Shown piece after piece: positions 3,212 to 21,390 of a stretch of 28,392 nt of DNA (positions are counted from its first letter, which is position 1; every line of letters begins with the position of its first letter). The stretch is from positions 1 to 28,392 of the forward strand of contig JAJYMT010000069.1 in assembly GCA_021786695.1 (NCBI GenBank), in the 5' to 3' direction. This DNA comes from a bacterium. Lineage in GTDB: Bacteria > Patescibacteriota > Patescibacteriia > Patescibacteriales > GWE2-39-37. The notes under the pieces were generated by a model. The model saw only the letters and a list, made by a program, of their open reading frames with translations, did not search any database and was not told the origin of the DNA. The position numbers and the translations under genes were made by a program.

Positions 3212-3562
3212 TTATACCAGTTCGATCTGCACCATCTTGGCGCCGTCACCCGGCCGCGCGCCCAGGCGGATGATGCGGCTATAACCGCCGGCACGGTCTT
3301 TGTAGCGCTCGGCCAGTACTTCCAGGGATTTCCTGACCGCCATCTTCTGCGGCAAAGTAGCGATCAAAGCGCGGCGGGCCGACAAATCGCCCTTTTTCGC
3401 GGTGGTGATGGATCGTTCGACCAGCGAGCGCACCGCCTTTGCCTTGGCTTCGGTGGTTTTGACCTTTTCATAGATCAGAATGCTGGACGCCAAATTACGG
3501 AGCATCAATTCGCGCGGCCCCTTGGCTCGGTCTAAAATTTTATTTTTATTGCGATGTCGCAT
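3212..3562 (-). CDS. rplQ: 50S ribosomal protein L17
   Basis: 'MRHR...LRNLASSILIYEKVKTTEAKAK', 'RYKDRAGGYSRIIRLGARPGDGAKM'. Confidence 0.99.
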   Translation of the reverse strand: MRHRNKNKILDRAKGPRELMLRNLASSILIYEKVKTTEAKAKAVRSLVERSITTAKKGDLSARRALIATLPQKMAVRKSLEVLAERYKDRAGGYSRIIRLGARPGDGAKMVQIELV

Positions 3563-3652
3563 AATAAATTCAAAGCGTAAATATCAAAATGTAAAATTTT
3601 GGAAATTATTTTCATCCCGCCTCGGCGGGATTCAATAATTTTGATTTTTAAT

Positions 3653-4459
3653 TTACTCCTTCTTCGGCCGGCCGCGCTTTTTCTTGGTCGAACCGTCTTC
3701 CGCTGCCTCCTCCGCGGTTGCTTCCGGCGCCGCCGCCTCTTCCGTTGCCTCGGCTTCCGACACCGCTTCCGGCTCCTTGCCGACCAGGGCGTTGAATTGT
3801 TCGATCAATATTTCGGCGGATTTTGTAAACGCGTCTTTGACCGAAATCGTACCGTCGGTGGTCACCGCCAGGATCAGTTTGTCCCAATTGGTCATTTTGC
3901 CGACGCGGACATTTTCCACGTTCACGGCAACGGAGGTGACCGGCGAAAAGGCGGAGTCGACTTCGATATAACCGATCTCATGTTTGGCCCGCTCGCGCGA
4001 TTCAATCGTCTCGTAGCCCCGGCCCCGCTGGATGAATAATTCCAGACCTAAGCTGCCGGCCATATCGGTGATATGCGCGATCGTCTGGTTCGGATTGACG
4101 ATTTCCACCTGGCTGTTTTTTGCAAAATCCTTGCCCTTCACTTCCTTCTCGCTGCGGGCGTCCAAAGTCAGAACCGCCGCTTCGTCCGAATGCAGTTTGA
4201 AGCGAAGCTGTTTGAGATTCAAGATAATCTCGAGCACGTCTTCTTTGATATGGGGCAAAGACATGAATTCATGGTCGGCTCCCTTGATTTTTACGCCAAC
4301 CACCGCGACTCCGGGCAAGCTTGACAGAAGCACCCTTCGGAGCGAATTGCCCAAAGTAATGCCGTAACCGGGAAAGCATGGTTCGATCACCACCAACTCC
4401 TGGTTGTCCGCCTCGCCTTTCTCAAATTTGATTTTCTGCGGCAGAGCGATTTTTTCCAT
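3653..4459 (-). CDS. rpoA: RNA polymerase alpha subunit lacking the canonical alpha-CTD
   Basis: 'IEPCFPGYGITLGNSLRRVLLSSLPG', 'HEF..LPHIKEDVLEIILNLK', 'VENVRVGKMTNWDKL'; ends at 268 aa in an acidic tail plus KKKRGRPKKE. Confidence 0.99.
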   Translation of the reverse strand: MEKIALPQKIKFEKGEADNQELVVIEPCFPGYGITLGNSLRRVLLSSLPGVAVVGVKIKGADHEFMSLPHIKEDVLEIILNLKQLRFKLHSDEAAVLTLDARSEKEVKGKDFAKNSQVEIVNPNQTIAHITDMAGSLGLELFIQRGRGYETIESRERAKHEIGYIEVDSAFSPVTSVAVNVENVRVGKMTNWDKLILAVTTDGTISVKDAFTKSAEILIEQFNALVGKEPEAVSEAEATEEAAAPEATAEEAAEDGSTKKKRGRPKKE

Positions 4460-5161: not shown

Positions 5162-5785
5162 TTACACTCTCCTCGGCTTCTTCGGCCGGCAGCCGCCGTG
5201 CGGGATCGGCGTCAGGTCTTTGATCGCCGTCACTACCAGGCCGTTGGCGTTCAGCGCCCGGATAGCCGATTCGCGGCCGGTGCCCACGCCGCGGACGAAC
5301 ACATTGACCTCGGATAAGCCGTATTCCTTCGCTTTCTCCACCGCGATGCGGGTGATGATCTGCGCGGCGTAAGGCGTCGATTTTTTCGGGCCCTTGAAGC
5401 CGGCGATGCCGGCGGAGGCCCAGGACAGCACATTACCCTCTTTATCGGTCAAAGTGATGATGGTGTTGTTGTAGGAGGCCTTGACGTAAGCGCGGCCGAC
5501 AGTCACCCGCCGATCCGCTTTTTTCTTCCGCTTCTTTTTTCTGGTGTCGGTCCGTTCGGCCTTCTTTTTTTCCAGATGCTTCTTGACGCTGTCAGGCAGT
5601 TCCTCCGGCTGGTTCAAGCTGGTCTTGATCACCTTGTCTTCGGTGGCGGAATCGCGCAAAGAAACGATTTGCTCGGCCGCCTCCGCTTTCTCGGTCTTTA
5701 TCTCTTTCTCCGCAGCAACCTCAGCCGGCTCGGCCGCCTGCGGTTCGTCTGTGACCTTATCAATTGTAGTATCTTTTTTCGTCAT
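5162..5785 (-). CDS. rpsK: 30S ribosomal protein S11 with a long N-terminal extension
   Basis: '[36 protein letters not shown]', '[18 protein letters not shown]'. Confidence 0.98.
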
Positions 5786-6807: not shown

Positions 6808-6836
6808 ATTATATATTCTAACCGTGCTTCTGTCAA
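6808..6836 (-). promoter_or_regulatory. Consensus promoter TTGACA-N17-TATAAT for the infA-rpsI operon
   Basis: -35 at 6831-6836, -10 at 6808-6813, A-tract-rich upstream region. Confidence 0.9.
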
Positions 6837-6890
6837 GTAGAAAGACCTTTGATTTATTTTTGCTAATTTAAGCCAAATTTAGTAAAAACC

Positions 6891-21361: not shown

Positions 21362-21390
21362 ATTATATCATATTATAGAGTTTATGTCAA
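21362..21390 (-). promoter_or_regulatory. Consensus promoter TTGACA-N17-TATAAT
   Basis: -35 at 21385-21390, -10 at 21362-21367. Confidence 0.9.

Follow-up and report, generated by a model that had tools for sequence, protein, structure and literature searches.

The window analysed here is a stretch of 28,392 nucleotides from an ultra-small bacterium of the Patescibacteriota (contig JAJYMT010000069.1), in which rpoA, the gene for the alpha subunit of RNA polymerase, lies on the minus strand at 3653..4459 (268 amino acids plus a stop codon in the list of open reading frames). A Pfam search of the translated protein found PF01000 (E=2.8e-27) and PF01193 (E=1.2e-20), both of which are domains of the alpha N-terminal region (alpha-NTD), and nothing beyond them; the alpha C-terminal domain (alpha-CTD, PF03118) had no match at E<=1. 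The rpoA model TIGR02027 scored 244.9 against its cut-off of 227.8, with model positions 4–227 of 298 aligned. The alpha-NTD, which serves assembly and dimerisation, was assigned to residues 1–228 (3776..4459, minus strand) from the Pfam matches (residues 26–222) and the AF2 model. It is followed by an acidic, disordered linker of 30 amino acids, residues 229–258 (3686..3775, minus strand), containing 11 Asp or Glu, 10 Ala and no Lys or Arg residues. The sequence KKKRGRPKK at residues 259–267 (3659..3685, minus strand) has the features of an AT-hook, i.e., the GRP core, an Arg before it and Lys/Arg flanks. Only Glu268 and the stop codon (3653..3658, minus strand) come after it, and the protein ends in ...EDGSTKKKRGRPKKE. 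The interval 3653–3775 therefore consists of the stop codon and the final 40 codons of rpoA. In the AF2 model, calculated with 56 homologues, the pLDDT was mostly above 90 in the NTD, whose last helix spans residues 207–226, and it was below 50 for residues 232–264, where no secondary structure was present.

The genes around rpoA, identified by Pfam, are arranged in the canonical order S13-S11-S4-RpoA-L17-L13-S9. Because just 90 nt (3563..3652) separate the rpoA stop codon from rplQ (3212–3562), there is no space for a split or frameshifted CTD, nor for a CTD remnant, and the short RpoA is not an artefact of assembly or frameshift. The source genome (843 kb in 82 contigs, 83% complete, 52.6% G+C) has a single match to PF01000, showing that rpoA is present in one copy, and about four matches to Sigma70 region 4. 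No PF03118 match above the cut-off was found in this 83%-complete genome by the profile search. These results confirmed that the RpoA encoded here lacks the alpha-CTD and has an acidic tail ending in an AT-hook, and both statements had already been made in the preliminary description, which noted an E/A-rich acidic linker with an AT-hook and the missing alpha-CTD. In the same gene string, S11 (5162–5785, minus strand) has an N-terminal extension of 96 aa, in which a run rich in Lys and Arg comes after an acidic stretch, and the Pfam S11 domain covers only residues 97–206.

PF02178 (AT_hook) was the sole Pfam family matching the RpoA tail, at 12.6–14.0 bits, below the cut-off of 17.4, and RpoA ends at position 9 of the 13 positions in this profile. 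The assignment of the hook drew, besides this sub-threshold match, on the invariant residues, the sequence logo and the codon diversity described below, and on a complex model. There is one hook per RpoA chain, next to the acidic region, and multiple hook repeats of the HMGA type are absent. RpoA has the only lysine-flanked canonical hook in the source genome, where the other RGRP matches are mostly in Arg-rich, off-frame open reading frames.

The conservation of the hook was then considered at the levels of peptide and codon. The motif [RK]GRP was present in the last 40 residues of 106 of the 120 nearest RpoA homologues (265–290 aa), and PF03118 was absent from all 120. In an alignment of 56 RpoA sequences with identities of 45–80%, including two proteins at 45–46%, R262, G263, R264, P265 and K267 were invariant and K260 and K266 were nearly so, while the linker columns had no consensus. 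From the 106 homologues and these five invariant residues, it is clear that the hook did not arise by chance in this one protein. When all sets were pooled, the hook was found in 148 of 271 unique RpoA sequences; the counts for the successive positions K, K, R, G, R, P, K and K in these 148 tails were 137, 130, 146, 148, 148, 148, 138 and 148, respectively, and only 3–5 residues followed GRP in 145 of them. The linkers of 39 hook-bearing relatives were 25–61 aa long and always net negative, with charges from -3 to -21. At the nucleotide level, the 21 nt encoding KRGRPKK occurred as 33 distinct strings among 36 loci, with Arg specified by up to six codons. This synonymous diversity indicates that the selection acts on the hook peptide and not on a DNA or RNA element, and the comparison of the sequences showed that the hook is under purifying selection at the peptide level. 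The motif is thus strongly conserved in the relatives of this RpoA, with five invariant residues and 148 unique tails.

To place the protein in its phylum, PF03118 was tallied in an even sample of 401 genomes, including the unpublished genome G154, and 334 of them had an alpha-CTD above the Pfam cut-off. In the window's own class, however, only 5 of the 25 genomes in this sample had a match at E <= 0.001 (4 above the cut-off), and all of the matches were located away from rpoA. The class includes the Falkowbacteria, Uhrbacteria, Magasanikbacteria, Kerfeldbacteria and Buchananbacteria, and the RpoA NTD was found in 243 of 251 class genomes sampled. The open reading frames of the 150 class RpoA matches listed were nearly all about 240–300 aa, and the alignment to the query never extended beyond residue 268, so that there is no fused alpha-CTD among these 150 matches. 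As judged from these sequence comparisons, the short RpoA is a trait of the whole GTDB class. Family f22 of another class, in which the CTD matches were weak, was considered as a second loss of the alpha-CTD; this was rejected, because its RpoA open reading frames are 309–336 aa long, so that the CTD is divergent and not lost.

The hook itself is much less widespread than the short RpoA. The pattern [KR][RS]G[RS]P[KR]K was found in 64 of the 251 class genomes, as compared with 13 for the reversed control pattern. The match fell on the last few codons of rpoA, as assigned by coordinates or from fetched loci, in at least 36 of the 251 genomes (14%), belonging to about 20 GTDB families, and a hook variant, KRGRPKRK, escaped the pattern. 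No RpoA-terminal hook was found outside the class in the phylum sample. Two other ways of mapping the hook were abandoned. The end of the phmmer alignment at query residue 266 or beyond could not serve as a proxy, as lysine-rich tips align equally far (G208 and G520), and it was dropped in favour of coordinates and fetched tails; a search of representatives at 50% identity reached other phyla too quickly. One genome of the sample, G468, has two rpoA copies of equal score that face opposite ways on the same contig (C37:4591-5394:+ and C37:37543-38346:-), which would reflect a large inverted duplication unless the assembly is at fault.

The tails of the relatives without the hook were of several kinds. 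Among 80 species-level loci nearest the window RpoA, 39 had the hook, 32 had lysine-rich tips (...KKKTKK) and 8 had acidic tails. Among 84 more distant loci, the hook was present in 12 and a lysine-rich tip in 32, and 39 fell into the acidic or short category, which contained a few full-length alpha-CTD proteins whose label was changed ahead of the tree building. The RpoA tail is only 11–20 aa in some lineages, and many relatives have mixed K/E tails. Hence the idea that the hook is the general answer of relatives lacking the alpha-CTD did not hold: it is present in about 14% of the class genomes, which otherwise have mostly lysine-rich tips or acidic stubs, and it has been lost or replaced at least five times, and about 15 times on the best tree. 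Hook presence was also not tied to base composition, as the mean locus G+C was 0.392 for the 39 hook loci and 0.394 for the 32 loci with lysine-rich tips.

A tree of 180 NTD sequences provided the basis for these counts. On this tree the hook accounts for 15 state changes, at least 5 of which are forced by branches with SH-aLRT of at least 95, and of the 20 changes for the lysine-rich tips at least 7 are forced. In several sub-clades the hook lineages are among the early branches. When the alpha-CTD sequences served as the root, parsimony required 24 steps with an ancestral hook, compared with 25–26 otherwise, and the ancestral-hook scenario involves 15 losses and zero re-gain. An ancestral hook in the CTD-less clade is therefore mildly favoured by the sequences; it is a lean and not a result, because the deep branches have weak support. 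Inside hook clades, the RpoA proteins of loci L018 and L035 have lysine/serine-rich tips of the KKSKKKSRSKKS type where their sisters carry KKSKKRGRPKKS, and some hook replacements, such as these two, look like decay in place.

Two further kinds of ends were noticed in this survey. In an otherwise acidic-tailed clade, one RpoA (L056:1501-2340:+) has an end similar to the Rho N-terminal/HeH motif PF07498 (19.4 bits, below the cut-off of 24.9; E=0.001), and this end may be another recruited nucleic-acid-binding module. In a short-tailed, Uhrbacteria-type clade (L166, L169, L171, L176, L178–L180, L186, L187, L196, L197 and L206), the conserved sequence Q-L-[NS]-H-A-S-L-T-E-[QK]-I is located just after the NTD and is followed by a short acidic end.

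Some genomes of the class encode the alpha-CTD as a separate polypeptide. The profile search detected a detached PF03118 domain in 20 of the 251 class genomes, and none of these 20 matches was at the rpoA coordinates wherever rpoA coordinates are listed. One of the proteins, with 467 aa (L086:263-1663:-, genome G046), combines Sigma70 region 4 (residues 217–265) with an alpha-CTD (residues 372–429). Others are stand-alone alpha-CTD proteins of 110–241 aa (L113:1246-1719:+ and L117:1237-1959:+, both in genome G095; L114:1264-1752:+, genome G386; L115:3-332:+, genome G223). In the genomes encoding these separate polypeptides, RpoA stops just after the NTD. The fusions with sigma region 4 come from the same class and, as in the genome studied here, accompany an RpoA without the alpha-CTD; they differ in being separate polypeptides, none of which is present in this genome, whereas the RpoA hook is in-chain. 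We considered that the detached alpha-CTD and the RpoA hook might be mutually exclusive. The hook was found in 1 of these 20 genomes and in at least 35 of the other 231, counts in which the relatives are not independent; exclusivity was rejected, because G537 carries both. Nor do we take the detached domains for an alpha-CTD that was relocated from RpoA.

The DNA on which the hook might act was investigated next. A sigma-70-type promoter matching the consensus at 12 of 12 positions (TTGACA-17-TATAAT) is located at 6808..6836 on the minus strand, upstream of the string infA/rpmJ-S13-S11-S4-rpoA-L17, and from its position it presumably serves rpoA. The region from about -40 to -80 of this promoter (6841..6880, minus strand) is A/T-rich and contains AAATTA and AAAAATAAAT. 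By our own reading of the sequence, a second promoter with 12 of 12 matches to TTGACA-17-TATAAT lies at 21362–21390 on the minus strand; G and C dominate the first 10 nt above its -35 element, and a terminator hairpin lies between the A/T runs. The 16S gene has a candidate promoter upstream, with ATAAATTAAT at about -58..-49. The preliminary description had taken the A-tract-rich DNA above the 6836 and 21390 promoters as agreeing with a role like that of UP elements. Both promoters indeed have the full consensus and A/T-rich upstream DNA, but part of the A/T at 21390 belongs to the terminator.

For a genome-wide view, promoter-like sites were scanned using crude gene calls (779 genes), which gave 296 such sites. 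The A/T content of the -59..-38 region was 0.628 at the 36 top sites facing a gene and 0.563 in the non-coding background. A run of at least six A or T residues was present in this region at 67% of the 36 sites, against 43% of random non-coding windows, and 5 of 2000 resamples reached 67%. However, intergenic consensus matches without a called gene downstream had an A/T content of 0.672 and such a run in 68%. The scan detected no positional A/T peak upstream of the promoters, the profile being flat across -75..-36. The upstream A/T enrichment is thus modest, and it is weak and not specific to promoters as compared with other intergenic DNA. The A/T-rich DNA at individual promoters is anecdotal as support for a UP-like role, given that the genome-wide enrichment is no greater than at the intergenic consensus matches.

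A model of the complex between RpoA residues 222–268 and 30 bp taken from the A/T-rich stretch (6841–6870, minus strand) had an ipSAE of 0.32 in three runs, and three unrelated control proteins had 0.00, on a scale that is uncalibrated for protein-DNA complexes. The confident contacts were made by residues 261–267 only, with bases 2–9 (AAATTAG) of the 30-mer. This model is only consistent with a contact between the hook and DNA. From the features of the hook we infer DNA binding, a preference for A/T and an action at promoters, and the reading to which we give about an even chance is that the tail tethers the polymerase flexibly to DNA upstream of promoters, with a preference for A/T. In its favour are the invariant hook beside a variable linker, the constant place of the hook near the C-terminus, the modelled contacts, the excess of A/T runs over random non-coding windows and the parallel with CarD described below. 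Alpha consists of the assembly domain, an acidic unstructured tether of about 30 residues and one C-terminal AT-hook. As RNA polymerase holds two alpha chains, each enzyme would have two hooks. In this proposal, upstream of the -35 element, the Arg-Gly-Arg-Pro core would enter the narrow minor groove at short tracts of A/T, and the holoenzyme would gain a sigma-independent, weakly sequence-selective grip, like the DNA-binding half of the recognition of UP elements by the alpha-CTD. The acidic linker would keep the tether stretched out and away from the DNA, and it may also weaken non-specific contacts of the basic tip. The role of the alpha-CTD in activator docking would not be taken over by the tail. 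The preliminary description had called the tail a minimal convergent substitute for the alpha-CTD. This was too broad: the DNA contact could be covered, but a 9-residue peptide cannot offer the activator-docking surfaces, which limits any substitution to the DNA contact, and what is seen is replacement by an unrelated motif, which does not by itself amount to convergence.

Several observations weigh against such a tether. The hook has been dispensable in evolution, being present in at least 36 of 251 class genomes and sometimes replaced by purely acidic stubs, its PF02178 score is below the cut-off, and the upstream A/T enrichment is small and flat, and equal or larger at intergenic sites without a gene. 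The hook also has no relation to the local G+C. In a different explanation, the tail is a non-specific electrostatic tether to DNA or the nucleoid, for one-dimensional search or retention, with no promoter or UP-like role and with an incidental A/T preference. Lysine-rich tips without a GRP core have repeatedly replaced the hook, also inside hook clades (L018 and L035), no promoter-specific A/T signal rises above the intergenic background, hook presence does not follow G+C, and in CarD the HMGA-like and H1-like domains are functionally equivalent (PMC2919716). We nevertheless consider this explanation rather unlikely, because the R-G-R-P-K-K core is invariant in the 148 unique tails (per-position counts as above) at NTD identities down to 45%, a constraint that exceeds a purely electrostatic need; more weakly, the modelled tail is predicted to touch the AAATTA tract and not the ends or the GC-containing parts of the 30-mer. 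That the tail is a neutral low-complexity remnant is effectively refuted by the conservation, with five invariant residues in 56 sequences at 45–80% identity and extensive synonymous codon change, although low-complexity tails and extensions are common on the proteins of this operon, such as the 96-aa extension of S11.

A ligand other than DNA was also considered. In known RNA polymerase structures, the C-terminus of the alpha-NTD is on the upstream face, distant from the RNA exit channel. This placement speaks against the possibility that the hook binds RNA, i.e., the nascent transcript, rRNA or a small RNA, for coupling to ribosomes or for modulating elongation or termination, and the S9 of the window itself has no hook. 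In three families of the same class (f163, f167 and f175), however, S9, encoded two genes downstream of rpoA, has a basic N-terminal extension of 45–55 aa with KRGRPKK, and these proteins match Pfam Ribosomal_S9 together with a sub-threshold AT_hook. They were found in f167 (L250:2387-2920:+, L251, L247, L248, L249 and L252), f175 (L258:2259-2768:+) and f163 (L259–L263), and the S9 hook is present both with and without an RpoA hook. As S9 is embedded in rRNA, and as RNA binding is reported for both canonical and extended AT-hooks (PMC4615771), the occurrence of the same KRGRPKK on S9 of these sister families counts against a tether to A/T-rich DNA and keeps RNA binding as an option for the RpoA hook, albeit one that we judge improbable. 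About equally improbable is that the acidic linker is the working part, acting as a polyanionic mimic of nucleic acid that sweeps off non-specific nucleic acid or auto-inhibits, with the basic tip parking the tail intramolecularly. The C-terminal tail of Bacillus delta (RpoE) and region 1.1 of sigma-70 are parallels for such acidic mimicry. Every hook-bearing linker has a net negative charge, from -3 to -21, and the basic tip is missing from the acidic tail in several lineages (such as the clade of L043, L054, L055 and L061). The AT-hook of SWI/SNF is reported to work in auto-regulation and not simply to anchor the protein to DNA (PMC10403523). Nevertheless, the linker sequence is unconserved, the tail is just 11–20 aa in some lineages and of mixed K/E composition in many relatives, and the invariant residues sit in the hook and not in the linker.

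The proposed tether to A/T-rich DNA can be compared with systems that are already known. Through the alpha-CTD, the polymerase contacts UP elements and a large fraction of the known activators. The RpoA tail resembles the E. coli-type alpha-CTD (PF03118; the rrnB P1 paradigm) in being joined to the alpha-NTD by a flexible linker, in being present twice per enzyme, and in sharing the gene position and the NTD; by analogy, arginine side chains would be expected to read the A/T-rich minor groove in both. It differs in having no helix-hairpin-helix fold, in using 9 residues instead of about 70–85, in lacking the surfaces for class I activators or sigma region 4, and in its longer and strongly acidic linker. 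Unlike the alpha-CTD, the hook module is evolutionarily labile within its clade. Eukaryotic HMGA1 has three AT-hooks with an RGRPKK-type sequence and an adjoining acidic stretch. The RpoA tail shares with this protein (PF02178) the GRP core with Arg/Lys flanks, close to RGRPKK, beside an acidic stretch; it has one hook instead of three, the acidic part is before the hook, the protein is a polymerase subunit and the Pfam score is sub-threshold. Archaeal RpoD and eukaryotic Rpb3 are likewise assembly-platform subunits without a DNA-binding C-terminal domain, but their enzymes use TBP/TFB-type factors, whereas the RpoA described here is in a bacterial sigma-dependent enzyme.

By analogy, CarD is the closest working analogue of the RpoA tail. 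In Myxococcus xanthus CarD, an RNAP-binding module precedes an acidic, unfolded segment that leads to RGRP AT-hooks (PMC4374960), and a histone-H1-like lysine-rich domain, found in one CarD relative, replaces the AT-hook domain of CarD without loss of function (PMC2919716). The likeness therefore includes both the order of an RNAP-associated module, an unfolded acidic segment and a basic RGRP hook or hooks, and the exchange between a hook and a lysine-rich sequence among relatives. On the other hand, CarD is an accessory factor with an RNAP-beta-binding CarD_CdnL_TRCF domain, four hooks and the partner CarG, and the RpoA tail is a single hook on a core subunit; the N-terminal domains of the two are unrelated, and CarD-type proteins are reported in myxobacteria only. 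Full-text literature searches found no published description of an AT-hook tail on RpoA. What is new here is the class-wide short RpoA, against the alpha-CTD in most of the phylum, the hook in about 14% of the class genomes, its lysine-rich and acidic alternatives, and the lean towards an ancestral hook.

The alpha-CTD usually counts as a standard component of the bacterial RNA polymerase, and some members of this class bear a 9-residue AT-hook instead. Because a whole class has an alpha subunit without the alpha-CTD, the upstream-contact module of RNA polymerase is replaceable and evolutionarily plastic. The tail may provide a minimal model for how much of the benefit of the alpha-CTD is simple minor-groove tethering, and it raises the question of how transcription is regulated without class I activation in these organisms. 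A more extensive scenario, which taken as a whole we regard as quite unlikely, is that the ancestor of the class (Falkowbacteria, Uhrbacteria, Magasanikbacteria, Kerfeldbacteria and relatives) swapped the near-universal alpha-CTD for a eukaryote-style AT-hook, after which lysine-rich tips, acidic stubs and perhaps an HeH motif evolved from this tail in its descendants, and some families put the hook on S9. The hook would then anchor the transcription and translation machinery to A/T-rich nucleic acid, and promoters would run without an activator-docking module on the polymerase. In other classes of the Patescibacteria, KRGRPKK hooks were also observed inside unrelated proteins of 118–690 aa (L126, L131, L132, L129 and L140), indicating that this motif is in use beyond RpoA and S9.
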